A DNA stretch of 64,000 bases from Candidatus Levyibacteriota bacterium (GTDB lineage Bacteria > Patescibacteriota > Microgenomatia > Levybacterales > UBA12049), in contig OY970292.1 in assembly GCA_963716145.1 (NCBI GenBank), positions 822,528-886,527 on the forward strand, given 5' to 3'. A model generated the notes under the pieces. It ran no database searches. It saw only the letters and a list, made by a program, of their open reading frames with translations, and was not told the DNA's origin. The translations under genes and the position numbers were made by a program. The stretch's first letter is position 1; every line of letters starts with the position of its first letter. Positions 7,378 through 38,396 of the stretch are shown one piece after another.

Positions 7378-7382
7378 AAAAA

Positions 7383-7922: not shown

Positions 7923-7953
7923 AAAATTAAGTTAAATAGTCAATTTACCAGCT

Positions 7954-10581: not shown

Positions 10582-10590
10582 TCTACTATG

Positions 10591-13847: not shown

Positions 13848-13886
13848 TATGCAACTTCAGAAAGATATAAATATTTTAGCAGAAAC

Positions 13887-15587: not shown

Positions 15588-15609
15588 ATGGCTTATAGAA
15601 AAGTATAAT
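15581..15609 (+). promoter_or_regulatory. consensus sigma70-type promoter TTGACA-17-TATAAT; -10 ends 7 nt before ATG 15617 (leaderless transcript predicted)
   Basis: ttgacaaatggcttatagaaaagtataat read directly; -35 overlaps the first codons of the minus-strand GT gene. Confidence 0.5.
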
Positions 15610-15616
15610 CCTCTCC

Positions 15617-15934: not shown

Positions 15935-15948
15935 TGCCTAAATAAATC

Positions 15949-17235
<1,287 letters not shown>

Positions 17236-17367
17236 ACTTTGATTGAAATCTATCTCTTCGGCGTAGTTTTGCGTATAGTTTGGCTTAGTTCTGCGTTTAA
17301 AGTTTATAACGCTAAACCACGCGGAATAAGACGCAGAACAATGCTAAAAAGCCTGCTTTCCCCTATG

Positions 17368-18765: not shown

Positions 18766-19076
18766 TGTTCTGGGTTTTCTATAGATCCTGTTGGTATTGG
18801 CGTTTCTTGAGCAGTGGGTGGTTCTGGCGTAACAGCCGCGCTTGGAGATGCATTTGTCGCTTCATAAAGAGGAGAGATTTGTTCTCTTGTTTTAAGTTTT
18901 TGAATTATTTCCGTGTCAAATTTAGGATTAATCGGTACGATTTGCAGCTGTAGATCCGGTTCGATTGTTGATGTGACCTGAGCATGATAAAGATTAAAAC
19001 CAATCCATAGAACAACCAGTACAAAAGAGGAAATGGAAATATACAGAATGTCTTTTTGAGCTCTATTTTTTTTCAT
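18762..19076 (-). CDS. small membrane-anchored protein (PilP-like position in pilNO cluster)
   Basis: 104 aa; single N-terminal TM ILYISISSFVLVVLWIGF, Pro-rich C-terminus; overlaps the downstream gene by 4 nt. Confidence 0.35.
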   Translation of the reverse strand: MKKNRAQKDILYISISSFVLVVLWIGFNLYHAQVTSTIEPDLQLQIVPINPKFDTEIIQKLKTREQISPLYEATNASPSAAVTPEPPTAQETPIPTGSIENPEQ

Positions 19077-19078
19077 AA

Positions 19079-19692
19079 TTATTTTTTAAAATATCCCCGG
19101 CCGTGAATATCTAAAGTGAGAGTATTCAATTTTGGATCTTTATTTACGGAAAGAGAATCAATACTTGTAATCCGATTAAATTGCGTGAGAGATTTGGCAA
19201 AATTCATAAGGTCGGCGTATGAGCCTTGGGCTTGCAGGGAAAAAGCATAAGAAGATTCGCTCGCTGTTTTGCCGCCAATTAATTGGATATTTGAGACAGC
19301 TAAAGATGTTGTTTGAACATTTGTCTTTTTTGACAATGCGAAGATTTGTCCCATAAGTCCGGTGCCTGAGCAGTTTGAGGAATTGCCTCAAAGACAACAG
19401 GCAGTTCAGAGCTCAGCTGAGTATATTGCTGTTGAAGAGAGCTGAGATTATTAATTTTTGTCCCCAATTTTTCATGAACCAGTTGGCTATCGGCGAGCTG
19501 CTTTTTTAGTGTTACAATCGTTGAAAGCGTTGGGTTAATGGCAAAAATTCCAAAAAATGACATTGCTAAGAAAGTCAGGATAAGCGTTGTGATAATTCTT
19601 GTATTCTCCTCATGGAAATTAGGCAGAAGCTTCAGATATTCACGATATTTACTGGTTGACAGGTTTTCAAAGTAATTTTTTGGAATTTTCAT
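19079..19692 (-). CDS. PilO-like type IV pilus assembly protein, split into two overlapping frames (19300..19692 and 19079..19354)
   Basis: N-terminal part has TM plus coiled coil (typical PilO N-terminus); C-terminal 91-aa ORF in another frame overlaps by 55 nt; combined length about 200 aa fits PilO; break probably an indel. Confidence 0.4.
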
Positions 19693-19695
19693 AAA

Positions 19696-20244
19696 TTAAA
19701 TGGTACCTCCTTTTTTTACTTGAGCGGTAATATTCATGTAGATAAGAGCACTGCTGGTTTTGTTTTCGATAGCGCCAATATTTACAGAGTTTAGGCTCGG
19801 GTAGTTTTTTAGCTTTTGGACAAAAGTACTTAAAGCGTTACTGTTTGAGGCTTGAACTTCAATTTTGACACCTTTTTCTGAAACAAGGAGATTTCTAAAT
19901 GTAACAATTCCCCTTCCTGCTTCAATAATATCAGCAAAAACACCAGGGGTAATTCCGCCTGCTTGATCATACTTTTTGGCTAGGGCAAGTCTTGCCTGGA
20001 GATTGCGGGCGGTATCCTCGGTGCTTTTGAATTGGCTGACTATTGCGCTTTGATTTTTGATCAGGTCGTGCAAATCAGTGATCTTCATGTCCAGTGAAAA
20101 ACGGTAAAGAAATGTTCCAAGGGCAAGTGTTTCAGTGAGTATGATAAGAAGCCTGCCTATGGTAAGTGCCCAATCAAAAAATTGGTCAAAAAAACCTTCT
20201 CCTTTGTGAGGAATCAAATTTATAGATTTTTTCTTCTCTGCCAT
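19696..20244 (-). CDS. PilN-like type IV pilus assembly protein
   Basis: 182 aa; N-terminal KKSINLIPHK matches the INLLP signature of PilN, followed by a single TM and a periplasmic domain. Confidence 0.5.
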   Translation of the reverse strand: MAEKKKSINLIPHKGEGFFDQFFDWALTIGRLLIILTETLALGTFLYRFSLDMKITDLHDLIKNQSAIVSQFKSTEDTARNLQARLALAKKYDQAGGITPGVFADIIEAGRGIVTFRNLLVSEKGVKIEVQASNSNALSTFVQKLKNYPSLNSVNIGAIENKTSSALIYMNITAQVKKGGTI

Positions 20245-20476
20245 AGCAAAAATAACGCTGGTTCAGCGGCTACTTTTAGCATAGGCAAATGAGTAAGAAA
20301 TGTAAAGTATTTCTAGATTTATCTAGAAAAGTTTTTTCAAGTATGATATACTTGCTTTAATCTCAAAGCTTAAATCGCAAAGCGCAAAGCTACAGCGGAG
20401 AGTTTAAAGCTTAACAGTTTTGAATTTTGAACTGTAATTTTGAGTTTTGCCTTTTGAATTTTGAGTTTTATTTTAT

Positions 20477-22603
20477 ATGGCTGATCAATCACGAAACGTA
20501 CCGCTGGACAAAATCCGAAATATCGGCATTATTGCCCATATTGATGCTGGTAAAACCACGACAACAGAGCGAATTCTTTACTATACCGGTAAAACATACA
20601 AGATCGGAGACATTGATGAAGGAAACACCCAGATGGACTGGATGGAGCAGGAAAAAGAGCGCGGGATTACTATTGTTTCAGCTGCCACCACTGCTTTCTG
20701 GACACACTCCCAAAATCCAACCGACCCATACCGCATAAATATTATCGATACTCCCGGACACGTTGACTTTACAGCTGAAGTTGAGCGCTCACTCCGTGTT
20801 CTTGACGGCGGAGTCACAGTTCTTGATGCCGAAGAAGGAGTCCAGTCACAATCCGAAACAGTCTGGAGACAAGCAGACAAATACAAAGTTCCTAGACTTT
20901 GCTTTGTTAACAAAATGGATAAATTGGGAGCTGATTTTCTATACACGATCGGAACGATTGAAGATCGGCTTGGTGCGAATTGTGCGATTATGGTCCTTCC
21001 AATTGGTGCTGAGAACACATATGTCGGAAATGTCGACCTCTTAACCCGCCAATCTTACACTTGGGGCTCGGAAGAGTTGGGTGCAAAATATGATGTAAAA
21101 GATGAAGTGCCTGAGGAGATGAAGGAAAAAGTCGAGGAATACCGCAATAAGCTGATTGAGAAAATCTCAGAAACAGATGACGCGCTTCTCGAAAAATACC
21201 TCGGAGGAGAAGAGCCGACAGTTGATGAGCTCAAAAAGGCTCTGCGCGCAGCAGTTATTGCATATAAGCTAGTCCCAATTTTCGCCGGGACTTCGCTTCG
21301 AAACAAAGGTGTCCAGCCGCTACTTGATGCTGTTGTTGATTATCTTCCCTCACCCGTTGATCTGAAAGAAGTAAAAGGACTAAATCCCAAAACAGGAGAT
21401 GAAGAAATCCGCCAGCTCGTACAAGACGCGCCTATGGCTGGTCTTGCTTTTAAAATCCAGAATGACCCGCACGTTGGAAAGCTTTCATATTTTAGAGTTT
21501 ACTCGGGAACTCTGGTTTCAGGCTCATATATATACAACAGTACAAAAGGCGTAAAAGAGCGTGTGGGTCGGATCCTTTTGATGCATGCCAATAACCGTGA
21601 GGAGATAAAAGAAGCATATGCTGGTGAAATTGTGGCTGTGGTTGGGCTCAAAGATACCATAACAGGAGATACCCTTTGTGATGAGGCAAAGCCGATTGTT
21701 CTTGAGCAGATTACATTTCCCGAGCCTGTCATTTCTCTTGCCATTGAGCCAAAAACAAAATCAGATCAGGAAAAACTCGGCTTTTCCATAAAGCGGCTAA
21801 CTGAGGAGGACCCTACATTTTCGGTTAAATCCAACCACGAAACAGGCCAGACAATTATCTCAGGAATTGGAGAACTTCAGCTTGAGATTATGGTTGATAG
21901 GATGAAGCGGGAGTTTGGTGTTGAGGCCAATGTCGGAGCTCCGATGGTTGCGTATAAAGAGACAATTGAGCAGGAGACTGAGGCTGAGGGGAAATATATC
22001 AAGCAATCAGGAGGACGCGGTCAATATGGCCATTGTTTCCTAAGAGTTACACCGGTGCCACGAGGCGAGGGATACTCATTTGTTAACGCTATAAAAGGTG
22101 GCGCGATTCCTGCGGAATTTGTCAAAGCGGTTGAAAAAGGAGCCAAAGAAACCTTGGAAAACGGAGTTCTGCTTGGATATCCTCTAATTGATGTACAAGT
22201 TACTTGCTATGACGGTTCATATCATGATGTTGATTCTTCAGAAATTGCGTTTAAAATAGCAGCCAGTCAGGCAATCCAAGCTGCCACCAAAAAAGCCGGT
22301 ATTTCACTTCTTGAGCCGATCATGAAGGTTGAGGTTACAACCCCCTCTGAATATATGGGAGAAGTAATTGGGGATCTTTCATCCAAAAGAGCACAGATTT
22401 TGGGGTCTGAGGAGAAAAATAAAGCAACTATCATCATGGCCATGGTGCCACTTGCTGAATTCTCTGGGTACGCGACCCAGCTTCGTTCATTAACTCAGGG
22501 AAGAGCGCACTACTACATGGAGCCATCACATTATGAAGCAGTGCCTAAGAACATCGTCGAAGGCCTCCTTGCCAAGTCCACATTCACGGGAAGAGTTGAG
22601 TAA
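20477..22603 (+). CDS. fusA: translation elongation factor G
   Basis: 708 aa; G-domain motifs [21 protein letters not shown]; full-length EF-G order. Confidence 0.97.
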
Positions 22604-22632
22604 AAGTTTAAATTTTCCGCTATAATATTTTT

Positions 22633-23286
22633 ATGTCTACAGTTCTTGGGGTTTTTGCGCATCCGGATGATGAAGCGTTTTTTACAGGCGGGACGATTGC
22701 CACACTTGCGAAAGATCACGATGTCTACACAATTTGTATTACAGATGGTGCTGCAGGGGAGAATAGCAGCAATAAAAAGGGTGAACTTTCAGCTATAAGG
22801 CGCGAAGAGCTTTTGGAGGCTGGAAAAATTCTCGGTGTCAGAAAGACTTTTTTCCTGGATTATAAAGATGGAACTCTTTCCAATAATCTTTATCATGATA
22901 TTGCGGAAAAGATACAAAAAATCACTGACGAGCTGAGGCCTGAGATACTCCTTACATTTGAACTTCGCGGTATATCGGGACATATTGATCACATGGCGAC
23001 ATCTGTGATCACCTCCTACGTTTTTGAGAAAGTAGACTACATAAAAGAGCTTTGGTATTTCTGTAATACGGAAAAAATTAAAGAAACAATTGAAGATTAT
23101 TATATTTTTTGGCCACCAGGATACAAAGATTCTGATATCTCAAAGACTATTGATATTTCTCCTGTTTGGGATACAAAAGTTTCAGCTATGATAGCTCACA
23201 ACTCTCAAATGCATGATGTTATGCGTATTCTTAAACGTGCTGAAACCCAACCAAAAGAAGAAAACTTCATAATAGTTAAGAAATAA
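22633..23286 (+). CDS. PIG-L/LmbE-family N-acetylglucosaminyl deacetylase
   Basis: 217 aa; N-terminal VFAHPDDEAFFTGGT (HPDDE zinc-binding signature of the PIG-L family). Confidence 0.75.
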   Translation: MSTVLGVFAHPDDEAFFTGGTIATLAKDHDVYTICITDGAAGENSSNKKGELSAIRREELLEAGKILGVRKTFFLDYKDGTLSNNLYHDIAEKIQKITDELRPEILLTFELRGISGHIDHMATSVITSYVFEKVDYIKELWYFCNTEKIKETIEDYYIFWPPGYKDSDISKTIDISPVWDTKVSAMIAHNSQMHDVMRILKRAETQPKEENFIIVKK

Positions 23287-23290
23287 TTTT

Positions 23291-23686
23291 ATGGCGTTTA
23301 CAAAATACAGAATTTTAATTTATTCGGAAAATCCGGATAAGTTGATGGAATTTTACCGCGACATTTTGGAATTTAAACTTGTGGATCATTTAGATATTCC
23401 CGGAGACTATGGATATATGCTTAATATTGGGGGGGGGGACTTAAATGTTTGGATTGGGAAGCATTCTGAAATAAGAGGATCAGCAAAAGAAAATTTCAGA
23501 CACTTGTTCAATCTATATCCTGAAGAAGGGCTTGAGTACTGGTTTAATAAGATTAAAGATAAACCAGGAGTGAAAATTATTGCAGAGCCCTATCTCGCTC
23601 CATTCTCAACTCCTGACAATCAAGTTTGGTTCTGCACTTTTCTTGATCCTGAAGGAAACTGCTGGCAATTTGTTGGAAAAAAGTAG
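23291..23686 (+). CDS. VOC/glyoxalase-bleomycin-resistance family protein
   Basis: 131 aa; beta-alpha-beta-beta-beta-like pattern with EFYRDILEFKLVD; contains a 10-G homopolymer at 23429-23438. Confidence 0.5.
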   Translation: MAFTKYRILIYSENPDKLMEFYRDILEFKLVDHLDIPGDYGYMLNIGGGDLNVWIGKHSEIRGSAKENFRHLFNLYPEEGLEYWFNKIKDKPGVKIIAEPYLAPFSTPDNQVWFCTFLDPEGNCWQFVGKK

Positions 23687-23705
23687 AAAAGGTATAATAG
23701 GAGAC

Positions 23706-24800
23706 ATGAAAAAGTTTCTTTTTCTGGCCTTCATTCTTGCCGCTGCTTCTCTATTCGCTTTCAAGACAATCCGCCAAAACGTAAAAAGTGATTTGGCACA
23801 GCCCGTTGTCCTCCCCGCCCCAACGCCCATACCCACAGAAGTTGTAAAAGATATAAAAGGAGCAAGGATCACGCGGTCTTTATTTGTGCCTTACTGGTCA
23901 TTGGATAGTAAAAAAATTGATACGGTTGGATTTGATAAAATACTTTATTTTGGAATAACTCCTGGTACCAATGGCATCAACAAAACGGAAGCAGGCTATA
24001 CAGGAATGGATAAATTTGTGTCCGCAGTCCCCGCCGGACACCAAACAGAATTGGTTGTTCGGATGATTGACTCAGATATTACCTTCCCGATACTAAAAGA
24101 TACTGCAAAACAAAAAAAACTTATTGAGGATTCGATTGCTATCGCAAAAGAAAATGGGTTTTCAGGAATAGTTTTGGATCTCGAGATCTCTGCAGTTCCA
24201 TTTGAGTCATTAATCAAGCAGGTTAACACTTTTACTCAAGCGTTTCATTCGCAAACAAAAAAAAGTAATATAAAGTTCTCGTTGATGTTTTACGGAGACA
24301 GTTTTTACAGACTCAGGCCCTTTGATATTCAAGCACTCTCAAAAAACGGAGACCATTTTATGATCATGGCATATGATTTTAGCAAGTCCCGCGGAAATCC
24401 GGGCCCCAATTTTCCACTCAATGGTAAAGAAGTTTACGGATACGATATGAGTAAGATGACTGACGACTTTTTGCGGTTTTTACCAACCGATAAAACTAGC
24501 GTAGTGTTTGGGTTATTCGGATACGATTGGATAGTTGATGACAAGGGAACAGCAGTATCAACAGGAGAGCCAAAGACATATCAGCAGATTAAAAAAGAAT
24601 TTCTATCAGGATGCGTTTATAAAGATTGCGATATTAAAAGAAAAAATGATTCGGTTGAGATAGAAATTACATATACCGATAAAGAGGATAAAAAGCACAT
24701 TGTCTGGTTTGAAGACATGGAATCAGTTGGGAAAAAGCAAAAGTATCTACAGGGAAAAGGCATAAATAACTTCAGCTTCTGGGCGTATTCGTATTTTTGA
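23706..24800 (+). CDS. secreted glycoside hydrolase family 18-like protein
   Basis: ATG 23706 preceded by aggag; signal peptide MKKFLFLAFILAAASLFA; GIVLDLEIS (DxE-like catalytic region) and MAYD (GH18 MxYD motif). Confidence 0.5.
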   Translation: MKKFLFLAFILAAASLFAFKTIRQNVKSDLAQPVVLPAPTPIPTEVVKDIKGARITRSLFVPYWSLDSKKIDTVGFDKILYFGITPGTNGINKTEAGYTGMDKFVSAVPAGHQTELVVRMIDSDITFPILKDTAKQKKLIEDSIAIAKENGFSGIVLDLEISAVPFESLIKQVNTFTQAFHSQTKKSNIKFSLMFYGDSFYRLRPFDIQALSKNGDHFMIMAYDFSKSRGNPGPNFPLNGKEVYGYDMSKMTDDFLRFLPTDKTSVVFGLFGYDWIVDDKGTAVSTGEPKTYQQIKKEFLSGCVYKDCDIKRKNDSVEIEITYTDKEDKKHIVWFEDMESVGKKQKYLQGKGINNFSFWAYSYF

Positions 24801-24811
24801 TATTTTCCCTC

Positions 24812-24840
24812 TTGACGCTATTTAAAAAATATTGTATCAT
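24812..24840 (+). promoter_or_regulatory. promoter-like element TTGACG-17-TATCAT upstream of tuf
   Basis: cttgacgctatttaaaaaatattgtatcat; followed at 24850-24878 by hairpin tctcatc-gaga-gatgaga plus T-run. Confidence 0.3.
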
Positions 24841-24894
24841 TACATTCACTCTCATCGAGAGATGAGATTTATTTTTTTGTATTAATTAACCAAT

Positions 24895-26081
24895 ATGGCA
24901 GACACAAAATTTAACAGAACTAAACCACACGTAAATATCGGAACAATCGGTCACGTTGATCACGGTAAGACCACCACTTCAGCTGCAATTGCAACTGTTC
25001 TCTCCAAAGAAGGCGGATGGCAAAAGCAATGAAGTACGAAGATATTGATAACGCCCCTGAAGAAAAAGCCCGCGGAGTCACCATTAATATTTCCCACCTA
25101 GAATACGAAACAGAAAAACGACACTATGCACATATCGACGCTCCAGGACACGCTGATTATATTAAAAACATGATCACAGGTGCAGCTCAAATGGACGGAG
25201 CAATTCTAGTTGTTTCAGCGCCAGACGGACCTATGCCACAAACCCGTGAGCACATTCTTCTTGCACAACAAGTCGGAGTTCCAGCAATCGTTGTTTTCCT
25301 TAACAAATGTGACATGGTTCAGGATGAAGAGCTTTTGGACTTCGTTGAAATGGAAGTCCGAGAGCTTCTTACAAAATACGAATATCCAGGCGATAAAACT
25401 CCAATTATCCGCGGATCAGCACTTAAAGCACTTGAAGGAGACGCAGAAGCAGAAAAAGCAATCTTAGAGCTTATGGAAACAGTTGATGAATATATCCCAA
25501 CTCCTGAGCGAGCACTGGACAAGCCATTCTTAATGCCTGTTGAGGACGTTTTCTCAATCAAAGGTCGTGGAACAGTTGTTACCGGAAGAATTGAGAGAGG
25601 AATAGTTAAAGTAAACGAAGCTGTTGAGATCGTCGGACTTGATAAGAACAAAGAATCAGTTGTAACCGGAGTTGAAATGTTCAAAAAACAGCTTGATGAT
25701 GGACAAGCAGGAGACAATGTTGGACTTCTTCTCAGAGGTCTTGAAAAAGACAGACGTTGAACGCGGCCAAGTTATTGCAAAACCAGGAACTATTACTCCT
25801 CACACAGAATTTGAAGCAGAAGCATATATCTTAACCAAAGAAGAAGGCGGACGACACACACCATTCTTTACAGGATACCGCCCACAATTTTATATCAGAA
25901 CAACTGATGTTACCGGAACAGCAACACTTCCAACAGGTGTTGAGATGGTTATGCCTGGAGACAAACAAAAATGACAGTAAAACTTATTGTGCCAGTTGCC
26001 CTTGAAGAAGGACTCCGATATGCAATCCGAGAAGGTGGAAAGACAGTCGGAGCAGGAGTAATTACCAAAATAATAAAATAA
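24895..26081 (+). CDS. tuf: translation elongation factor Tu; reading frame broken at at least three positions (about 25015, 25745, 25968), likely sequence errors
   Basis: [27 protein letters not shown]...; frame shifts after VLSKEGG (gga-tgg should be gga atg), before [10 protein letters not shown] and before [35 protein letters not shown]; all three pieces are canonical EF-Tu. Confidence 0.9.
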
Positions 26082-26088
26082 CCTAAAG

Positions 26089-26111
26089 AACCCGAGAAAT
26101 CGGGTTTTTTT
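26089..26111 (+). terminator. rho-independent terminator after tuf
   Basis: aacccgagaaatcgggttttttt: 5-bp GC stem, GAAA loop, T7. Confidence 0.7.
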
Positions 26112-26160
26112 GCCCGCTTCGCAGCGAGGCGAGTTCTTTAAAAGTTTGTTAGGGAAACAT

Positions 26161-26472
26161 ATGCCAAAAGGAAGAATCAGAGTCACGATTAAAAAGTTAT
26201 GATGCGCGCGTCTTGGATGCGTGTTGTCAGCAGATATTGGATTCGGTTATAAGAACCGGAGCTAAAGTTGTTGGTCCAGTTCCTCTACCCACAGACAGAC
26301 AGCTTTACGCTGTGAATAAATCACCATTTATTGATAAAGAACGCAAGAGATCATTTTGAGATCAGAGTTCACAAGCGCTTGATTGATATCATGTCACCGA
26401 CAGACAAAACAATTGACAGTTTAACAAATTTGGCTCTACCAGCAGGAGTAGATGTAGAGTTGAAGATGTAGT
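26161..26472 (+). CDS. rpsJ: 30S ribosomal protein S10; frame interrupted by several 1-nt indels
   Basis: [19 protein letters not shown]... and ...[41 protein letters not shown] recovered only by switching frames (stops at 26200 and 26359). Confidence 0.8.
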
Positions 26473-26594
26473 TTTACATTTTAATTATAAATGCCCAACC
26501 AACAATTGAATATTAAAATGGTAGATCGATTAAAAATGCTTAGCTAAGCCACCCCATTTAGAGGGGATCAGATCACACAAGTGTGAAATATGAT

Positions 26595-26620
26595 GATAGC
26601 CTAAGGGCTATCTTTTTTTT
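26595..26620 (+). terminator. hairpin plus T8 between rpsJ and rplC
   Basis: gatagcctaagggctatctttttttt: 7-bp stem, taag loop, T8. Confidence 0.55.
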
Positions 26621-26642
26621 GTCGATAAGAATACGCAATAAT

Positions 26643-27356
26643 ATGATTAATACATTAATAGGACAAAAAGTAAGTCAGGCGCAAAGTTTCCGGCAAGATG
26701 GGCTTCGGATTCCTGTCACGGAAATTGCGTTATCAGATAACGTGGTTTTGCAGGTAAAAAACGCTGATAGAGATGCTTATTCTGCTGTTCAATTAGGCGC
26801 AGGTCTTAAAAAGAAGCCAAACAAAGCATTTCTGGGACACGCAAAAAAAGCAGGTCAGGAAAAAGCACCTTTAAAGATTAAAGAAATTTCGGTTATCGGC
26901 ATAAATGTTGATGATTTGCCCAAAGCTGGTGATCAAATAGCACTGGATGCTGTATTTAAGCCGGGAGACGTTGTGCAGGTAACCGGTACATCAAAAGGAA
27001 AAGGTTTTGCCGGCGTAGTACGGCGCTACAATTTCAGAGGCGGTCCCAAGACTCATGGACAATCCGACAGGCACAGAGCTCCCGGATCAATCGGGCAGTC
27101 AACAACTCCGGGAAGAGTATACAAAGGAAAAAGAATGGCAGGTCGAATGGGATCTGACACTGTCACTGTCAAAAATTTGACAGTTGTTGATGTTGATTCT
27201 GAAAATAAAAAACTCTATGTTTCAGGGCTTGTTCCCGGACACAGAAGCTCATGGCTTTATATCACCAAAACAGGCGAGGACAAAAAATTTGTACCGTTAA
27301 TTAGTGATAAAGAAGAGGTTGCGGAAGAGGAGAAGGTTCCAAGTAGAAGAAGTTAA
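26643..27356 (+). CDS. rplC: 50S ribosomal protein L3 (acidic tail may continue to 27600 in another frame)
   Basis: MINTLIGQKVSQAQSFRQDGLRIPVTEIAL... typical uL3; RBS-less internal start chosen at 26643; the ORF track starts further upstream across the terminator. Confidence 0.85.
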   Translation: MINTLIGQKVSQAQSFRQDGLRIPVTEIALSDNVVLQVKNADRDAYSAVQLGAGLKKKPNKAFLGHAKKAGQEKAPLKIKEISVIGINVDDLPKAGDQIALDAVFKPGDVVQVTGTSKGKGFAGVVRRYNFRGGPKTHGQSDRHRAPGSIGQSTTPGRVYKGKRMAGRMGSDTVTVKNLTVVDVDSENKKLYVSGLVPGHRSSWLYITKTGEDKKFVPLISDKEEVAEEEKVPSRRS

Positions 27357-27600
27357 AGCAGAGGCAAAAATTGATGAAGCGCCTGTCGAGGTTGCTCATG
27401 ATTCGGAAGTAGTCAAGTTTGAGGTAGAGCAGGCAGAAGAAGCAAAGGATGCAGCAGAAGCTGTTGTTGCTCCTGAAGAGACTGTAAAGACAGCAGCAGA
27501 TACTGTTAAAACTGCAGAAGAGACAGTTGAAGCACCGGCTGAAGAAGTTAAGGCTTCAGAGGAGTCTGTTGCTGAGCCAAAGAAGGAGGAAAATGTCTAA
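27304..27600 (+). CDS. Glu/Ala/Val-rich acidic low-complexity ORF, probable C-terminal extension of L3 displaced by an indel
   Basis: EEVKAEAKIDEAPVEV...AEETVEAPAEEVKASEESVAEPKKEENV; overlaps the L3 end in the +1 frame. Confidence 0.35.
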   Translation: MIKKRLRKRRRFQVEEVKAEAKIDEAPVEVAHDSEVVKFEVEQAEEAKDAAEAVVAPEETVKTAADTVKTAEETVEAPAEEVKASEESVAEPKKEENV

Positions 27601-28420
27601 GACAAGTTTAAAGTTAAAAGTTAAAAGTTCAAAAGTAGTTAAAAAACCAGCTAAGGCGCCTAAAGTTCTTCTTAAAAAAGAAGCGTTAAAGGTCGTAAAG
27701 TCTGGCGAAGCTAGATCCCGCTCCGCGGGACAAAAGACCGTTTCAAAAACTGTTAAAGCAGAATCTATTAATCTAACAGTCAGCGTTTATGGCTTGGACG
27801 GCAAAGTTAGCGGAAAAGTATCTTTGCCAAAAGAAATTTTTGGAGAGATAGTTAATAAAAAACTTTTGGCACAAGCTGTACGGGTTTACCAAGCAAACAA
27901 AAGACAAGGAAATGCAAATACCAAAACCCGGGGAGAAGTAGACGGATCAACTAGGAAGATTTACAAACAAAAAGGAACGGGAAAAGCACGACACGGCTCG
28001 GTTCGTGCCCCTATATTTGTAAAAGGTGGAATAGTTCATGGCCCAAGAGTTCGTGATTTTGGCCTTGAATTACCCAAAAAAATGAAGAGAAAAGCGCTCT
28101 TTTCCGCCCTTTCGGCAAAATTGCAGGATGGAGAAGTAAAAGTTCTTTCAGGTCTTGAAAAAATTACACCTAAAACTAAACAATTTGCAGCTGTCATAGA
28201 AAAATTAGCATTTGAAGGAAATAATAAAAAATTGCTTTTAGTTGCGCCTGATAATTTTGACAACGCGAAGCGGGCATCGCGCAATCTTACAGGCATAACA
28301 AATACATCGGCTCTTAGGCTGAACGCGCTTGAGGTATTGAGTAGTAAATATCTACTTTTTACAAAAGAAGCAATTATTGAGATGGAGACGTATTTTTTGA
28401 AAAAAGGAGCAACAAAATGA
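27593..28420 (+). CDS. rplD: 50S ribosomal protein L4 with Lys-rich N-terminal extension
   Basis: ATG 27593 after aaggagga; MSKTSLKLKVKSSKVVKK...; core INLTVSVYGLDGK...YKQKGTGKARHGS is typical uL4. Confidence 0.85.
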   Translation: MSKTSLKLKVKSSKVVKKPAKAPKVLLKKEALKVVKSGEARSRSAGQKTVSKTVKAESINLTVSVYGLDGKVSGKVSLPKEIFGEIVNKKLLAQAVRVYQANKRQGNANTKTRGEVDGSTRKIYKQKGTGKARHGSVRAPIFVKGGIVHGPRVRDFGLELPKKMKRKALFSALSAKLQDGEVKVLSGLEKITPKTKQFAAVIEKLAFEGNNKKLLLVAPDNFDNAKRASRNLTGITNTSALRLNALEVLSSKYLLFTKEAIIEMETYFLKKGATK

Positions 28421-28734
28421 ATAACACAATAATTATAAAGCCTGTTGTTACTGAAAAATCAATGCAAAGTGGTGGCCCTGCCAAGTTTACATTTATGGTT
28501 GATGCGTTTGCAACAAAAACAGATATAAAAAATGCACTTAAAGAGTCATTTGGAGTAAATGTTGTGTCTGTTTCAACAAGTAAGATCAAGGGAAAAAGGA
28601 AAAGAATCGGAGCGCGAAGACTTGAGGTGCAGGAGCAAGCAACAAAAAAAGCAACAGTAATGCTCAGAAAAGGAGAAAAGCTCTCAATTTTTGAATCGGG
28701 AACAGACGAAGAAAAGAAGAAAAAGAAAAAATAA
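28417..28734 (+). CDS. rplW: 50S ribosomal protein L23
   Basis: 105 aa; [11 protein letters not shown]... uL23 pattern; Lys-rich tail. Confidence 0.9.
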
Positions 28735-28736
28735 TT

Positions 28737-29488
28737 ATGAAAAAATTAAAAACAATTAAAAAAAAACATTCCGGACGCGACGCAAGCGGACAGGTATCAG
28801 TTCGTCATCAGGGCGGACAACACAAGAGATTTGTCAGGAGCATTGATTTTAAAAGAGATAAATTTGATATAGTTGGGAAAGTTTTGGGGATTGAATATGA
28901 TCCAAATAGAACTTGTGACATTGCTCTGGTTCAATACACCGATGGAGATAAGCGCTATATGTTGGCTCCACATCGGATTAAAGATAAATGATACAATAGT
29001 GTCCGGCAAGAGTGTGGATGCGGTTTTGGGTAACTCGCTTCCTCTGTCAAACATTCCGCTCGGAACAATGGTTCACAATGTTGAACTAACACCAGGCAAG
29101 GGTGGACAAATCGCAAGGAGCGCCGGGACTGGAGCAATTGTTACAGCAAAAGAAGGCGATTTCGTACATCTGAAGATGCCCTCAGGTGAAATGAGGAAAG
29201 TCCGCGTTATGGCTCATGGCAACCGTCGGACAATTGGGAAATGAGGATTGGAAAAATGAGCAATTGGGAAAAGCAGGGAGAGCCCGAAATATGGGTAGAC
29301 GCCCGACCGTCCGGGGAGTAGCGCAAAACCCAAGATCTCATCCGCATGGAGGAGGAGAAGGACGATCTGGTATCGGTATGCCCGGGCCAAAGACTTTTGC
29401 AGGAAGAGCGGCTGTAGGTAACACTCGAAAAAAGAAAAAATATTCAGATAAATATATTTTAAAGAGAAGAAAGACTAAGAGAGGATAG
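28737..29488 (+). CDS. rplB: 50S ribosomal protein L2; split into three frames by indels
   Basis: fragments 28737..28991, 28873..29244 and 29216..29488 together read as uL2 (…[44 protein letters not shown]…[26 protein letters not shown]…). Confidence 0.85.
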
Positions 29489-29515
29489 TTCGACTAGCTC
29501 ACTATAAACAAAATT

Positions 29516-29801
29516 ATGGGAAGAAGTACAAAAAAAGGACCATACATAGACGCAAAATTAATGAAAAAGGTTATGCTGCAAAAAGCAGGCAGTAACCGCG
29601 ACGGAATAAAAACCTGGGCAAGAGCTTGCCAGATTCCACCTGAATTTGTGGGTCACACATTTATGGTGCACAACGGGAAAAATTTTATCAAAGTGCTATG
29701 TTAATGAAAATATGGTTGGTTCACGTCTTGGTGAATTCTCACCAACCCGGATGTTCCGAGGTCACGGAAAAGTTGTAGCACGAGAGATAAGTAAGACTTA
29801 A
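29516..29801 (+). CDS. rpsS: 30S ribosomal protein S19; frameshift near 29695
   Basis: [19 protein letters not shown]...HNGKNFIKV, then in +1 frame [31 protein letters not shown]. Confidence 0.85.
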
Positions 29802-29805
29802 AGAT

Positions 29806-30175
29806 ATGGAAGTTAGAGCAATAGCAAAATCAGTCAGAATGAGTCCAAGAAAAGTGAGGCTTGTTGCGGATGCGATAAGGCAGCTTTCAATTGAGCAAGC
29901 TTTTATCGTTCTTGAAGCCACACAAAATAGAGCGGCTGCACCACTTTCCAAAACGCTTCAAGAGCGCTGTTGCAAACGCAATTATGAATAACAATCTTGA
30001 CCGAGAAAATTTAATAATCGAAAGTATCATGGTGAATGAAGGGCAAGCCCTGAAAAGGTTTCACCCCAGTCACGAGGACGTGATACATCCTTACAAAAAA
30101 AAGAGCAGCCATATAACAATTGTTTTGAAAGAAAAAGCTGTTAAGAAGCCTGCGGTTCGTAAAAGCAGATTCTAA
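29806..30175 (+). CDS. rplV: 50S ribosomal protein L22; frameshift near 29940
   Basis: MEVRAIAKSVRMSPRKVRLVADAIRQLSIEQA..., continuing in another frame with ...IMNNNLDRENLIIESIMVNEGQALKRFHPSHEDVIHPYKKKSSHITIVLKE. Confidence 0.8.
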
Positions 30176-30240
30176 AAAAGCAGAAAAAGACGATAAAACA
30201 AGAAACAGTATTCGTTAAAACAGATAAGAAGAAAGGAGGG

Positions 30241-30317
30241 GGAAAATAAATTTCAAATATCAAATTTCAAATATCAAATTTCAAATAGATTTGATAGGAA
30301 ATTGGAAATTGGAAATT
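30241..30317. repeat. intergenic tandem repeats upstream of rpsC: (AAATTTCAAATATC)x2.7 and (GGAAATT)x4
   Basis: aaatttcaaatatcaaatttcaaatatcaaatttcaaatag ... ggaaattggaaattggaaattggaaatt, directly before RBS aggagg. Confidence 0.85.
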
Positions 30318-30339
30318 GGAAATTCTCCGAAGGAGGCAT

Positions 30340-30981
30340 ATGGGACAAAAAGTTAATCCACACGTTGTAAGACTTGGTAATGTGTTTAGCTGGGCAAGCC
30401 GATGGTTTGATGAGAGAAAGTACAAAGAAACTTTACTTCAGGATTTTACTCTTCGAAAATGCTGATGAATAAGTTAAGACCGGCAGGTATTGCAAAAGTT
30501 GAAATTGAGCGCTCAATTAACAGTCTGAAAATTATTATTTTTGTCTCACGTCCCGGAATTGTGATAGGCAGAGGCGGATCAGGTCTTGAAGATCTTAAGA
30601 AAAGCATAGTCAAGTTTTTCGCTAAGCAAACCGGTGCAAATATGTCGAAATTGGATATCCGGGTTGAGCCGGTAAAAGACCCGAATCTGGACGCATATCT
30701 TGTAGCGGTAAGTATTTCAGATCAGCTGATCAGAAGACTTCCGTATAAAAGAATTTTGCATCAACAGCCGAGCGTGTGATGAAAGCGGTGCAAAGGGTGT
30801 TAAGATTTTACTGACCGGAAGAATCGGCGGTTCTGAAATTGCGAGACGGGAGAAAATTCATTTCGGTACAGTCCCACTATCAACAATCCGAGAAAATATA
30901 AGTTACGTAAGCTATCCGTCATTAACAAAAAAGGGTTATATCGGGATTAAAGTTTGGATAAATAAACCAGAAGAAAAATAG
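30340..30981 (+). CDS. rpsC: 30S ribosomal protein S3; multiple frame interruptions
   Basis: ATG 30340 after aggagg; [23 protein letters not shown]...; KH-domain and C-terminal [12 protein letters not shown] pieces lie in different frames (ORF 30459..30779 is the middle part). Confidence 0.8.
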
Positions 30982-30982
30982 T

Positions 30983-31396
30983 ATGTTAATACCAAGAAGA
31001 CAAAAATACAGAAAACAGCAAAGAGGAAGCATGAAGGGGAACGCTAACCGCGGAATCAAGATTTCCTTTGGAGATTTCGGTTTGCAGACTTTGGAAATGG
31101 CTTGGATATCAGCACGTCAAATTGAAGCAGCCAGACGGGCAATTACCCACTATACCCAAAGAGGCGGACGTATCTGGATCAGAATTTTCCCTGACAAACC
31201 GATCAGTAAAAAACCGGCTGAGGTTAGAATGGGCGGAGGAAAAGGAGATACTCATGAATATGTTGCGCCGGTACGCCCAGGGCGAATCCTGTTTGAAATC
31301 GCAGGAGTAACACAGGAGGCAGCAAAAGAAGCACTGCGTTTGGCAGCTCACAAATTACCGGTTAAAACAAGATTTGTTTCAAAATCGGACAACTAA
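30983..31396 (+). CDS. rplP: 50S ribosomal protein L16
   Basis: 137 aa; [15 protein letters not shown]... typical uL16. Confidence 0.9.
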
Positions 31397-31399
31397 TAT

Positions 31400-31722
31400 A
31401 TGAAATTAAATATAAAAAAGAATTACACGCAAAATCTATAGCAGAGCTTAGTAAGCAGCTTAAAGAAGCACGCAGCGAGCAGCGCGTTTTAAAGCTTGAT
31501 AAAGAAATGGGAAAGCTCAAAAACACCAGCTCTCTTACGAGTAAAAGAGGAGAAATAGCTGTGATCAATACGATTATTAATGAGAAGTTGGCTGAAGCAA
31601 GAATTGTAGAAGTGGCTAAAGCAGATGATAAAAAAGAGGTTTCAGTAAAAGTTAAACCTGCTATTGAGGCTAAAGTGAGCAAGAAGGTTAAGGCTGTTAA
31701 AAAAGGAGGTAAAAGTGAGTAA
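31400..31722 (+). CDS. rpmC: 50S ribosomal protein L29 with Lys/Ala-rich C-terminal extension; frameshift in an A-run near 31415
   Basis: MKLNIKK then (frame +1) ELHAKSIAELSKQLKEARSEQRVLKLDKEMGKLKN... uL29 core; extension ...[24 protein letters not shown]. Confidence 0.7.
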
Positions 31723-31960
31723 AGTATTAACAGGAAAAGTGGTATCAGTCAAAATGCAGGATACAGTACTTGTTGAGGTGGTTAGAAGAACCCCTCACAA
31801 GCTCTATGGAAAGCTAATGAGAAGAAGTAAAAAATTTAAAGTGGCGGTTAATGGACAAAGTGTAGTTGTGGGTAGCCAGGTGAAAATTGAGGAAACAAAG
31901 CCAATGTCCAAAGATAAGCACTTTAAAGTGATTGAGATAATTAAGGAGCAAAAAGTATGA
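31715..31960 (+). CDS. rpsQ: 30S ribosomal protein S17
   Basis: 81 aa; [29 protein letters not shown] typical uS17. Confidence 0.9.
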
Positions 31961-32331
31961 TTCAGCAGAAAACTATTTTAGTTGCAGCAGATAATTCAGG
32001 CGCAAAGCAGCTGATTGTCATTCATATGTATGGTGGTTCAAAAAGAAAATTTGCCCGAATTGGGGACGTCATCCACTGTGTTGTAAAAGAAGCTGCGCCA
32101 AATGGGCAGGTTAAGGATAGTGAGATGGTAAAGGCAGTAGTTGTCAGAACCAGGAAAGAGTTTAGGCGCTCGGATGGTTCATATATCCGTTTTTCAGATA
32201 ATGCGGCGGTTGTTATTGATAATCCAAAAGATAAAAATGTAAGGGGAACAAGAATTTTTGGACCGATTGCAAGAGAAGTAAAAGACCGAGGATTTGCGAA
32301 AATTGCCAGTATGGCAACGGAGGTACTGTAA
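31957..32331 (+). CDS. rplN: 50S ribosomal protein L14
   Basis: 124 aa; [17 protein letters not shown]... Confidence 0.95.
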
Positions 32332-32332
32332 T

Positions 32333-32638
32333 ATGAAATTAATAAAAGGAGATTTAGTAAAAGTAACTAAAGGAAAAGACAGCGGTAAAACCGGAAAAGT
32401 CGAGCGGGTTTATGTCCTAACGAGTAAAGTCCTTGTTGAAGGAGTGAATCAATACAAAAGACATATTAAAGCAAAAACTCAAGGTCAGAAGTCAGAAATT
32501 GTTACTATCACCAAGCCTTTACCAGTTAGTAATGTTGCGCTGCTTTGTCCCAAATGTAAAAAGCAGACAAGAATTGGATACAAGATCCTAAAAGACGGCA
32601 AAGTGAGAATATGCAAGAAATGTAAAGCTCAAATATGA
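32333..32638 (+). CDS. rplX: 50S ribosomal protein L24 (KOW) with C-terminal CxxC...CxxC zinc-ribbon-like motif
   Basis: MKLIKGDLVKVTKGKDSGKTGKVERV... KOW domain; C-terminus LLCPKCKKQTRIGYKILKDGKVRICKKCKAQI. Confidence 0.85.
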   Translation: MKLIKGDLVKVTKGKDSGKTGKVERVYVLTSKVLVEGVNQYKRHIKAKTQGQKSEIVTITKPLPVSNVALLCPKCKKQTRIGYKILKDGKVRICKKCKAQI

Positions 32639-33189
32639 CAGATTTACAAAAAAAATATAAAGAGGAAATGATTCCGGAGTTACAAAAAAAGCTCAGTCTC
32701 AAGAACCCGATGAGTGTGCCAAGAATTGCAAAAATTGTTGTCAACATGGGTGTTAAAGACGCTGTGGCGGACAAAAAAAACATTGAAAAAATGGCCGCAA
32801 TTATGTCCCAAATTACCGGACAGAAAGCAAAAGTAACCAAAGCAAAAAAGGCAATCGCGACTTTTAAGCTTAGAATTGGGGATCCAATCGGACTGGTTGT
32901 TACCTTACGCGGTGCTAGGATGTATGATTTTTTTGATAAAATTGTCAAGGTTGTTCTTCCTCGTATTAAGGATTTTAGAGGAGTTAAGAGGACGAGTTTT
33001 GACAAAACAGGAAATTACACATTGGGTCTTTACGAATACTCGGTTTTTCCTGAGATTGATCCGGGAAGCGTTGAGAAGCTTCAGGGGATGGAAATTGTAA
33101 TCGTAACTAGTGCTAAAACCAATCAAGAATCACTTGCTCTTCTTGAGCAAATGGGAATGCCGTTTACGAAGGAAGCTGCTAAGCAGTAA
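32635..33189 (+). CDS. rplE: 50S ribosomal protein L5
   Basis: 184 aa; typical uL5. Confidence 0.95.
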   Translation: MTDLQKKYKEEMIPELQKKLSLKNPMSVPRIAKIVVNMGVKDAVADKKNIEKMAAIMSQITGQKAKVTKAKKAIATFKLRIGDPIGLVVTLRGARMYDFFDKIVKVVLPRIKDFRGVKRTSFDKTGNYTLGLYEYSVFPEIDPGSVEKLQGMEIVIVTSAKTNQESLALLEQMGMPFTKEAAKQ

Positions 33190-33338
33190 AATGAGCGTAA
33201 ATGTGGTATAATTCATGCGTAGAATTTTTAATTTGAAATTTTCAATTTTCATTGAAATCCAAAATGTTTAAAAATTTAAATTTAAAACATTAAATATTCA
33301 TTTCAAATTTTAAATTAAAAATTAAATCTTAATAAATT

Positions 33339-34823: not shown

Positions 34824-35329
34824 TGAGACAACGATCTATGAACAGAATGCCCAATCAGCAAAGCGAGTTTGAGGAGCAAATTGTACAAATTAATAGGGTA
34901 TCTAAAAAAACAAAAGGTGGAAATAAGGTAGGCTTTTCAGCCCTTACTGTAGTAGGTGACCGAAAAGGAAAAGTCGGAGTTGGACTTGGCAAGGCGCCCG
35001 ACGTCGCCTCAGCAATCAGAAAGGGTATAAGTTATGCCAAAAAACATTTGGTTGAGGCACCGCTTGTAAATGGAACAATTCCATTTAGAATAGATATCAA
35101 ACTTGGCGCTGCAAGAATTATGCTCAAGCCTGCTCCTCACGGATCAGGTGTTATTGCAGGCGGTGCTGTCAGAAGTGTTGTAACGGCTGCGGGAATTGAG
35201 AACATCTCTTCAAAAGTTTTGGGTACAAGAAACAAAATAAGCAATATTTACGCAACTCTTGAAGCATTAAGAAGACTTAGTGAGCGCGGGACAAAGCAAA
35301 AAGATAGAAAATCCGCGATGAAGGGATAA
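34823..35329 (+). CDS. rpsE: 30S ribosomal protein S5
   Basis: 168 aa; dsRBD plus S5 C-terminal domain pattern. Confidence 0.9.
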   Translation: MRQRSMNRMPNQQSEFEEQIVQINRVSKKTKGGNKVGFSALTVVGDRKGKVGVGLGKAPDVASAIRKGISYAKKHLVEAPLVNGTIPFRIDIKLGAARIMLKPAPHGSGVIAGGAVRSVVTAAGIENISSKVLGTRNKISNIYATLEALRRLSERGTKQKDRKSAMKG

Positions 35330-35383
35330 CCCGTTCGGGACATTCGGCTGAGCTCAGTCGAAGTCCGGGCTCAGGATAAAAAT

Positions 35384-35821
35384 ATGAATTTAAGCAATCT
35401 TGAAAAAATAAAAGACAAAAAGAAAAAGCGAATCGGTCTTGGGCATGGATCGGGACGTGGAAAAACTGCAGGACGTGGGACAAAAGGTCAGAAAGCAAGA
35501 GGAGATGTGCCCTTGGATTTTGAAGGGGGAGCGCTTCCTCTTATCAAAAGACTTCCATTTTTGCGCGGAAAAGGAAAAAATAAATCATTTAAAAAAACAC
35601 CACTTGTTATTAATGTCAGTCTTTTAAGCAATTTTCCCAAGAACTCAGTTGTGGATATTGAGAGTCTGGTAAAACATAAACTGGTAAAGCAAGACAGTGT
35701 AAAGACAAATGGTGTTAAAATATTAGGTGATGGAGATTTGAGCGTCGCACTTACCGTTAAAGTTCCGGCGTCAAAAGGAGCAACTGAAAAAATCAAAAAA
35801 GCGGGCGGATCAGTAATTTAA
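35384..35821 (+). CDS. rplO: 50S ribosomal protein L15 (follows rpsE directly; no L30 gene)
   Basis: 145 aa; [23 protein letters not shown]. Confidence 0.9.
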
Positions 35822-37110
35822 TGGACAGTTTTATAAAAACTCTTCAAAGCAGCTTTAAGTCACCTGAGGTAAGAAAAAAAATCCTTTTCACTCTTGGGAT
35901 CTTCTTAGTATTTAGATTTTTAGCACACGTTCCTGTGGCCGGAGTCAACGTGGCACAGCTTAAAAATCTTTTTGCGGGCAATCAATTTTTGGGGCTTTTA
36001 GATATATTTTCAGGCGGAACCCTTGGTAACTTTTCAATAATGGCACTTGGTTTAAATCCGTATATCAACGCTTCAATCATACTCCAACTGCTGACAATGG
36101 TATTCCCAAAACTTGAAGAACTCTCAAAAGAAGGCGCATCAGGACAGCGCAAGATCAATCAGTACACCAGGTTTTTGACAATTCCGCTTGCGTCTTTGCA
36201 GGCAATTGGTATGTACGCACTCTTAAGAAGTCAGGGAATTATCGCAACACTGTCTCCTATTGCAACTATTTCATTCATCGTTACAATGGTAGCCGGTACT
36301 ATGTTTCTGGTTTGGCTTGGGGAACTTATTACCGAGCGCGGAGTGGGAAATGGTATTTCTCTTATGATTTTTGCCGGAATTGTAGGCCGCTTTCCTGTGC
36401 TCTTGGGGCAAACCCTTTCAACTGCCACACCTGAGTCGACCTCTAATATTATAACCTTTCTTGTGCTTGGGTTGGTAGTTATAGCGGCAGTAATTGTCAT
36501 GACTGAGGCAACGCGTCAGGTCACAGTTTTTTATGCCAAAAGAGTACGGGGAAATAAGATGCAAGGGGGAGAGTCAACTCATCTGCCGCTTCGCTTAAAT
36601 CAAGCAGGAGTAATTCCGATCATTTTTGCAGTCTCCATTGTACTTCTACCCTCCCTTCTTGCTAATTTTTTTCAAGCTTCAAAAAACCCTGTACTTTCAG
36701 GTTTTGCGCAAAACGTAAGTATTTGGTTTGCTCCGTCCAGTATTGCCTACAATTTGTTATATTTTCTTTTGGTTGTTGGGTTCACTTTTTTCTATACGGC
36801 AATTGTTTTTAACCCCAAAAAGATTTCAGAGGAAATACAAAAACACGGCGGTTTTATACCAGGAATCAGGCCCGGTACGCCCACTACCAAATACCTCAAT
36901 TATATTTTAACCAGAATTACGCTGGTTGGCGCCAGCTTTTTGGGACTCGTCGCGATATTGCCTGAATTGGCGCGTGTTATAACCGGTGTTCAGACGCTTC
37001 TTCTTGGAGGAACAAGTATTTTGATTGTTGTCAGTGTTGTTCTTGAGACTTTTAAAAAAATTGAGGCAAACCTTGTAATGCGTAATTACGAAAGTTTCCT
37101 TAACAAATAA
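35821..37110 (+). CDS. secY: preprotein translocase subunit SecY
   Basis: 429 aa, 10 TM helices, typical N-terminus. Confidence 0.95.
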
Positions 37111-37134
37111 TCCTTCGACAAGCTCAGGATAAAT

Positions 37135-37683
37135 ATGAAGATAATTTTATTAGGTGTACAGGGATCCGGTAAATCAACTCAAGGAAATCTTCTTTCAACT
37201 TTTTTTAATGTTCCCTATCTTTCAACCGGCCAAATTTTTCGCCAACTTGCAAAAGAAGATACCTCAATAGGACGTGAGATAAAAGAGCTAATGACTAAAG
37301 GCTACCTTATTCCTGATGACAAAACACTTGAAATAGTCACAGATTATTTAACACGCCTTGCGTATCAAAAGGGATTTATTCTTGATGGTTATCCGCGCAA
37401 TCTTGCACAGGCAGAATCATTTCCAACAGCAATTGATAAAGTCGTGTACATAAATGTTTCTGATAAAGAAGCAAGACGGAGAATTGAAGGAAGAAATGTT
37501 GATAAAGCCCAAGTGCGCCCGGATGATACACCAGAGGCAATTACAAGAAGGATTGATATTTTTCATAAATCTACAAAACCGCTTCTGGAATACTACAAAA
37601 ATAAAGGAATGTTAATTGAGGTAAACGGAGAACAAGAGGTTTCGGAAATTCACAAAGAGATAATTGATAAACTTAAAAAATAA
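37135..37683 (+). CDS. adk: adenylate kinase (short form)
   Basis: 182 aa; MKIILLGVQGSGKSTQG P-loop. Confidence 0.9.
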   Translation: MKIILLGVQGSGKSTQGNLLSTFFNVPYLSTGQIFRQLAKEDTSIGREIKELMTKGYLIPDDKTLEIVTDYLTRLAYQKGFILDGYPRNLAQAESFPTAIDKVVYINVSDKEARRRIEGRNVDKAQVRPDDTPEAITRRIDIFHKSTKPLLEYYKNKGMLIEVNGEQEVSEIHKEIIDKLKK

Positions 37684-38387
37684 TGTCAAAAGGATTTGTA
37701 ATCGCAATAGATGGACCGGTTGCCTCAGGTAAGGGAACAATTGCTCAAAAACTCGCAAAAGAATTAAGCGGGTTTTATCTTTACACAGGAGCAATGTATA
37801 GGTGTATTGCTCTTTTGGTTATTGAAAGAGGACTTAACTTAGAAAATGAGCAGGAAGTTGAATCTGTTTTGCCAGAGCTAAATATTGAATTTGTTGAGGA
37901 TGCGATTTTATTAAACGGCAAAGATGTAACTGAGAGAATAAAAAATTCTGATACCGCAAGCGGTGCATCAAAAGTCGGGGTTTTTCCAAATGTCAGACAA
38001 TTTGTTGATAAAAACCTTAGAATTATAGCGGAAAAGATAAGTTCAGAAGGTAAAATAGTTGTATCTGAGGGAAGAGATACAGCTACAACGATATTTCCAA
38101 ATGCTCCAATTAAAATATATTTAACAGCAAGGGATGAGATTAGAGCAATGCGTCGGATGGAGCAGTTTGTAAATCAGGAAAAAAATCTTGATCAAGAACT
38201 TGAAAGATTAAAAACTAGGGATAAAAGAGATACGGAGAGAGAAGCCAGTCCTCTACCAAGTAATCCTGAAAGTCTTGGATATTTTGTTTTGGATAACTCG
38301 GATCTGAGTGAGGAACAAACACTGGACGTGATAAATAAAGAGTTGGTAAATAAAGGATTGATAGATCCTGAATCGAGTTCAGGATGA
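37683..38387 (+). CDS. cmk: cytidylate kinase
   Basis: 234 aa; IAIDGPVASGKGT. Confidence 0.85.
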   Translation: MSKGFVIAIDGPVASGKGTIAQKLAKELSGFYLYTGAMYRCIALLVIERGLNLENEQEVESVLPELNIEFVEDAILLNGKDVTERIKNSDTASGASKVGVFPNVRQFVDKNLRIIAEKISSEGKIVVSEGRDTATTIFPNAPIKIYLTARDEIRAMRRMEQFVNQEKNLDQELERLKTRDKRDTEREASPLPSNPESLGYFVLDNSDLSEEQTLDVINKELVNKGLIDPESSSG

Positions 38388-38396
38388 CATAAATAT

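Follow-up and report, generated by a model that had tools for sequence, protein, structure and literature searches.

The window analysed here, a 64-kb stretch of a deposited 1,142,061-bp single contig (NCBI and ENA; OY970292.1) from Candidatus Levyibacteriota, one of the Microgenomates of the Candidate Phyla Radiation (CPR), contains a block of translation genes whose reading frames are repeatedly interrupted. The block begins with tuf, encoding EF-Tu (24895-26081, on the + strand like all genes of the block), and continues downstream into the S10 operon, with rpsJ, rplC, rplD, rplW, rplB, rpsS, rplV, rpsC, rplP, rpmC and rpsQ in that order. A sequence-only reading of the window had described tuf, rpsJ, rplB, rpsS, rplV, rpsC and rpmC as broken by single-base insertions and deletions (indels). 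The open reading frame (ORF) map and two alignment approaches confirmed this for all seven, and revealed rplC as an eighth broken gene that the earlier list did not include. In the ORF map, tuf appears as four ORFs (24895-25032, 25017-25760, 25672-25974 and 25971-26081), rpsJ as two or three, rplB as three, and rpsS and rplV as two each; rpsC is fragmented, and rpmC is without a start. The remaining genes rplD, rplW, rplP and rpsQ are intact.

The indels were placed by aligning the intact proteins of the nearest species-representative locus (L005, JBBSGK010000003; 88% amino-acid identity on L4, ~79% nucleotide identity) to the window with a frameshift-aware dynamic programme, and by base-level alignment to independently assembled Logan contigs. 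Eighteen one-base indels were found between 25,017 and 31,412, comprising 11 extra bases and 7 missing bases. In tuf, a base is missing after 25017 and another after 25964, and one is in excess at 25745-25749; the first of these is the example given in the sequence-only reading, GGA-TGG in place of GGA-ATG, which was correct. In rpsJ (S10, 26161-26471) two bases are in excess, a C at 26186 and a G at 26336-26339 that interrupts an A-run, and in rplC (L3, 26643-27600) an extra A at 27341 truncates the acidic C-terminal extension of the protein. After the intact pair rplD and rplW (27593-28734), rplB (L2, 28737-29488) has two bases too many, a C at 28971 and one at 29217, and rpsS (S19, 29516-29801) an extra base at 29698/29699 (CT[AT]GTT versus CTGGTT). 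The most heavily affected gene is rplV (L22, 29806-30249), with extra bases at 29960, 30083, 30158 and 30199 and one missing after 30069. Bases are missing from rpsC (S3, 30340-30981) after 30455, 30757 and 30781. Beyond rplP (L16, 30983-31396), which is intact and has three substitutions relative to the independent contig, a base missing after 31412 separates the start codon of rpmC (L29, 31400-31722) from the body of the gene.

For the repair, one base was deleted at each excess site (at 25749, 26339 and 29698 where the placement spans more than one position) and one was added after each of the seven positions at which a base is missing. These 18 single-base edits were enough to give stop-free, full-length products for tuf (395 aa), rpsJ (102 aa), rplC (318 aa), rplB (249 aa), rpsS (94 aa), rplV (146 aa), rpsC (214 aa) and rpmC (107 aa), and the repaired proteins align end to end with their orthologues. 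A 90-aa fragment of rplB that results from the frameshift is on record for the deposited contig in both NCBI and ENA and is not in Logan, which indicates that the indels belong to the public assembly and are unsupported by the k-mer assembly.

The independent comparison was made with four Logan contigs of run ERR11593400, retrieved by exact-protein look-up, which cover the window from 16526 through tuf (L003), at 27212-30277 (L001), at 30297-33290 (L004) and at 35059-38758 (L002). This run is probably the read set behind the deposited contig, judging by the 100% identity between the two assemblies elsewhere; we found nothing in the literature on the run. The window is 100% identical to the Logan contigs at 16526-20812, 21815-24919, 31413-33290 and 35059-38758, the last of these being the segment covered by L002, with zero differences. 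Disagreement is concentrated in a zone of ~6.5 kb of highly conserved genes (24920-31412, + strand), where alignments to L003, L001 and L004 gave 119 substitutions and all 18 frame-breaking indels. The ~14 kb compared outside this zone are identical except for 8 positions in fusA. At contig level, L003 matches the window up to 24919 apart from those fusA positions and then diverges by ~7% through tuf, chiefly at third codon positions. L001 differs by 20 substitutions and 9 indels, none of which lies within 27342-28745, leaving rplD and rplW as a clean island, and L004 by 19 substitutions and 4 indels, every one of them at or before 31412.

Wherever the Logan contigs cover a frameshift site, the frameshift is absent from them; the rpsJ site at 26339 is uncovered, and the first tuf site (25017) is not resolved. 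L001 and L004 carry intact rplB (249 aa), rpsS (94 aa), rplV (146 aa) and rpmC (107 aa) and an unbroken part of rpsC, and in L001 the rplC gene call runs uninterrupted up to the start of rplD. The operon genes are likewise single-frame in 80 species-representative relatives, bar two isolated single-gene exceptions. The intact Logan alleles and the single-frame relatives uphold the proposal of the sequence-only reading that these are sequence errors and not pseudogenes. No organism carries these frameshifts, and they are an artefact, not biology.

The same reading had extended the uncertainty to every other frameshift or homopolymer call in the window, and here our results disagree with it. The remaining 57 kb holds at most one candidate frameshift and is densely filled with intact ORFs of up to 1071 aa. 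Thus 18 of the 19 candidate frameshifts fall in ~6.8 kb, or ~10% of the 64 kb; under an even spread, the probability that ≥18 would do so is ~1e-17. Together with the identical flanks, the lack of homopolymer-broken genes outside the zone, and the reproduction of a frameshift in a PilO-like gene by an independent contig, this shows that the uncertainty is local to highly conserved genes and not general. Other inferences drawn from the window, that PilO-like frameshift included, do not carry the uncertainty of the ribosomal zone.

The substitutions that accompany the indels are not of the kind expected from read noise. Substitutions between the window and the Logan contigs total 126; for 121 a classification within genes was possible, giving 91 synonymous and 30 non-synonymous changes. 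The latter are mostly conservative exchanges (V/I, K/R, D/E and S/A). Since ~75% of the classified substitutions are synonymous, and not the ~25% expected from read noise, the two assemblies hold two evolved allele sets on identical flanks. The differences are also patchy. There are none in the PIG-L, glyoxalase-like and GH18 genes between fusA and tuf, in the tuf-rpsJ spacer (26070-26151), in rplD or in rplW; there are few in fusA, ~7% in tuf, and 0.7-2.5% in rplB, rpsS, rplV, rpsC and rplP. Their density correlates with identity to the nearest relative (Spearman 0.45, p = 6e-4). A contiguous foreign haplotype is disfavoured by this pattern, because most of its divergence would be expected in spacers and poorly conserved genes, where none is seen.

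We then scored how common each of the two alleles is over 80 related loci. Relatives more often carry the window allele at 93 differing sites and the Logan one at 29 (p = 5e-9), and the same direction held at composition-neutral sites, that is A/T or G/C exchanges (25 for the window versus 5 for Logan). Rare alleles, found in <10% of relatives, were carried by the window at 1 of 124 sites and by Logan at 21 of 124. At the level of the whole gene, most relatives for which both alleles were scored are 1.5-3.6 points closer to the window tuf than to the Logan tuf, but L005 only ~0.5 points. Sister alleles should be equidistant from outgroups, and we therefore take the window sequence to have been pulled towards the family consensus. 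Contamination of the consensus by reads from relatives would produce just such a bias. GC content at third codon positions was also tried as a means of deciding which tuf allele is native, and led to no decision (0.289 versus 0.347, with neighbouring genes at 0.275-0.40).

A second genome shows the same syndrome. Through a cluster mate of the rplB fragment we reached ENA ERZ25039516 contig_37517 (L086; 463,514 bp), which comes from a different Levybacteria species and is ~79% identical to the window. Its corresponding region (5842-16802) has ~46 frameshifts spanning tuf to rplO; rpsJ, rplC, rplD and rplW, the GH1, PIG-L and GH18 genes on the flanks, and secY and adk are all free of them. That this contig is affected and the 80 relatives are single-frame indicates that the syndrome belongs to certain assemblies, not to the lineage as such. 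The recurrence suggests that assembly or polishing fails systematically at conserved operons where a community contains many related CPR lineages.

Taken as a whole, these observations make it probable that the frameshifts are a local consensus artefact that arose when reads of related populations were mixed over a conserved locus. Over most of the contig, reads would have come from one population and yielded an essentially perfect consensus. At tuf and the S10 operon, and faintly at fusA, reads or read segments of related co-occurring populations may have been similar enough to be merged with the native reads at the assembly or polishing stage, so that the consensus caller would have met several alleles at many, mostly synonymous, sites. 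The caller would often have adopted the commoner, non-native base, producing the substitutions, and at some conflicting sites it would have emitted one base too many or too few, producing the indels. The outcome would be a chimeric sequence that no organism carries. Read mixing during consensus building is the cause to which the sequence comparisons point, and the platform was presumably a long-read one of the Flye type.

Errors of a comparable kind have been described. Contigs from metaFlye and metaMDBG can contain indels and single-nucleotide variants backed by few or no reads, which break ORFs in thousands of genes within otherwise correct flanks, and chimeric constructs occur when subpopulations have a conserved locus in common (Trigodet et al., bioRxiv 10.1101/2025.04.22.649783). 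The window resembles these cases in its local cluster of indels and in its mixed alleles in conserved genes. It differs in that Trigodet et al. worked from read mapping, whereas here the class is assigned from a second assembly and from relatives, and we found in their report no description of errors that cluster on tuf and the S10 operon and spare islands of less conserved genes.

Several points weigh against the mixing of reads as we propose it. Mixed coverage is deduced indirectly, from the assembled sequences and from relatives. A relative co-occurring in the same run could not be shown, the L086 proteins being present in ENA and not in Logan, and an exact-protein look-up with alternative starts matched the window-type rplP alleles to no other contig of the run. 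Two Logan members of the EF-G cluster (P0012 and P0011) were considered as evidence of co-occurrence and proved uninformative, as they come from other samples (SRR32059644 and SRR31559758/64). Conservation alone is insufficient to explain where the errors fall, because the spc and alpha operons (31.7-43.8 kb) are conserved like rplB-rpsC, yet are clean. If the Logan allele had evolved unusually fast, this could in principle account for the bias towards the family consensus. The Logan contigs are themselves not a perfect truth set, because L003 has errors of its own: its fusA has an in-frame TAA and a 1-nt insertion (5283-5290 of that contig; called as 444 + 233 aa), and its tuf has a 1-nt deletion (9323; 358 + 36 aa). 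The window has the correct version at both places, and the L003 errors are confined to conserved genes. Lastly, by eye many insertion sites fit the idea that both alleles of a single-nucleotide polymorphism had been kept in tandem (for example CC[A][C]ATC, CA[A][G]AGC, GT[T][C]GTA and AAA[G]AAC). When slot ambiguity was allowed and an insertion could be assigned to either neighbouring codon position, 8 of 11 insertions lay beside a third codon position versus the 2/3 expected, a proportion not significantly different from chance.

An unlikely alternative is that the contig was threaded through a rare related subpopulation with few reads, so that polishing left residual indels. The zone alleles in the window and in the independent contigs do differ and are evolved, indels remain in low-coverage long-read consensus, and assemblers have been reported to put variable regions of very minor subpopulations into contigs (bioRxiv 10.1101/2025.04.22.649783). 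A path through such a minor haplotype is difficult to reconcile with the finding that both assemblies are identical in rplD and rplW (27342-28745), in the tuf-rpsJ spacer and in the genes lying between fusA and tuf. A real lineage would also own derived alleles, and the window alleles are almost never private (1/124). Moreover, random low-coverage error would bring non-conservative substitutions, and there are none in the repaired proteins.

Genuine biological heterogeneity might instead underlie the two allele sets, a situation we regard as improbable. Co-existing sub-strains of one population would be identical in non-conserved DNA and carry tuf and S10 alleles up to 7% apart, which homologous recombination with relatives would have brought in as short patches confined to conserved coding sequence. 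The assembler would then have failed on real polymorphism, with the indels still being artefacts. This would accommodate flanks that are 100% identical next to conserved coding segments that differ by 0.6-7%, the range of divergence between the assemblies in the zone, mostly at synonymous positions. RecA-dependent recombination requires high-identity anchors, and this need would restrict imports to conserved genes. However, the identity of the spacer and the bias towards a consensus of multiple relatives are explained as well or better by mixing, and the same syndrome in the unrelated contig L086 suggests an effect of the pipeline. If the recombination account were true, the translation-gene cluster would be a recombination hotspot among CPR species.

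Generic platform noise, in the form of homopolymer-length miscalls across the whole assembly that would make all frameshift calls in the window unreliable, is very improbable and has been largely refuted here. The sequence-only reading had placed the breaks in short homopolymers. Such a context exists at only a minority of the sites, and as a type of error the homopolymer explanation was supported neither by the neighbours of the extra bases nor by the comparison of run lengths with the Logan contigs. Relative to the independent contigs, 9 of the 11 extra bases differ from both of their neighbours, and the other 2 turn a 1-nt run into one of 2. Four of the missing bases shorten a 2-nt run and three are singletons. 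A length change in a run of ≥3 nt is required by none of the 18 events, and where the zone could be compared it has 58 runs of ≥5 nt, 57 of which are equally long in both assemblies. The A-runs at 25744-25749, 26336-26339 and 30195-30201 are broken up by G or C, not lengthened. A few sites can still be read as run-length changes: an A-run reading is available only for rpmC (A7 to A6 if Ile = ATA) and possibly for 25745-25749 (A4 to A5), and several more would be 2-to-1 or 1-to-2 changes. Homopolymers of ≥5 nt occur 705 times in the window, and 86 of these are ≥7 nt, yet they break no gene outside the zone, where just one gene is broken at all.

Homopolymer-length indels are the classic long-read error. 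They are known from consensus sequences of the Nanopore and 454 type, where truncated-protein tests of the IDEEL type detect them (Sereika et al. 2022, PMC9262707). The window shares with that class single-base indels that truncate predicted proteins in a presumably long-read metagenome-assembled genome. Homopolymer-length errors, however, sit in runs, scale with run length and occur genome-wide, whereas the errors in the window are mostly singletons confined to 10% of it. Since the errors are of another type, correction aimed at homopolymers would leave most of them in place.

Real inactivation or decoded frameshifts, whether pseudogenes, programmed ribosomal frameshifting or transcriptional slippage, can be set aside as having next to no chance, for although the indels are present in the deposited record and CPR bacteria are reduced symbionts, such accounts are contradicted by intact alleles for five of the eight genes in Logan contigs of a run otherwise identical to the genome, by orthologues that are single-frame in the relatives, and by repaired proteins that are fully conserved and without sign of relaxed selection. 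In insect endosymbionts, slippage reportedly rescues frameshifts at poly(A) tracts, and the window has in common with them a small symbiont-like genome in which essential genes are apparently frameshifted near A-rich sequence. Rescue by slippage in reduced endosymbionts depends on long poly(A) tracts where the shift occurs and on a conserved frameshift; the 18 sites of the window, in contrast, have no long poly(A) tract and no common slippery motif, and they mix +1 and -1 shifts.

The consequences of the artefact are practical and not biological. S10, L3, L2, S19, L22 and S3, with L29 and EF-Tu alongside, belong to the ribosomal-protein markers used in CPR and tree-of-life phylogenies and in completeness estimates, and they are truncated in the deposited 1.14-Mb contig, a near-complete CPR genome. 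What survives of the marker sequence is biased to the family consensus, which could distort both phylogenetic placement and quality scores.

Several further features of the window deserve mention. Upstream of the zone, fusA (EF-G, 20477-22603, + strand) is intact in the window. Its disagreement with the Logan contigs consists of 7 substitutions and 1 indel at 20813-21814, and here it is the Logan version that is broken. Between fusA and tuf lie three non-translation genes on the + strand (22633-24800), encoding a PIG-L-family deacetylase, a glyoxalase-like protein and a GH18 glycosidase (the last at 23706-24800). This arrangement is largely common to the relatives L005 and L086, which indicates that the str operon is interrupted in the lineage. 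Downstream, the S10 operon is followed on the + strand by the spc and alpha operons, secY and adk. A Pfam scan of the large ORFs elsewhere in the window brought up no further universally conserved genes, such as rpoB/C, that could serve as extra test loci, and an Rfam scan of the window returned five tRNAs and nothing else. Four large ORFs have no Pfam match at E ≤ 1e-5: 45317-48472 (1051 aa), 52995-56210 (1071 aa), 56216-58084 (622 aa, - strand) and 43780-44970 (396 aa, - strand).

The candidate frameshift outside the zone lies in a PilO-like pilus-assembly gene (19079-19692, - strand), in which one missing base near 19358 gives two ORFs of 130 and 91 aa. The gene is single in the relatives L085, L087 and L088 (206-217 aa), and the EF-G cluster members P0012 and P0011 confirm it as a single gene in relatives. 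Unlike the indels of the ribosomal zone, this frameshift recurs exactly in the independent Logan contig L003, which leaves a real mutation or a systematic read error as its source. The surrounding sequence, TTA[A]TGG, is similar to GGA[A]TGG at the tuf site.

Two of the ribosomal proteins have terminal extensions. The acidic C-terminal extension of rplC is rich in E, A and V and ~95 aa long (27300-27600), and rplD has a Lys-rich N-terminal extension of ~60 aa (27593-27770). Both are present in relatives too, with rplC reaching 316 aa in L005 and 328 aa in L086. Between rplV and rpsC is a spacer of ~90 nt (30248-30324) that contains the tandem arrays AAATTTCAAATATC x2.9 and GGAAATT x4. In L005, rplV and rpsC abut without a spacer. 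The spacer is also the point at which both Logan contigs stop, with L001 ending at 30277 and L004 starting at 30297.

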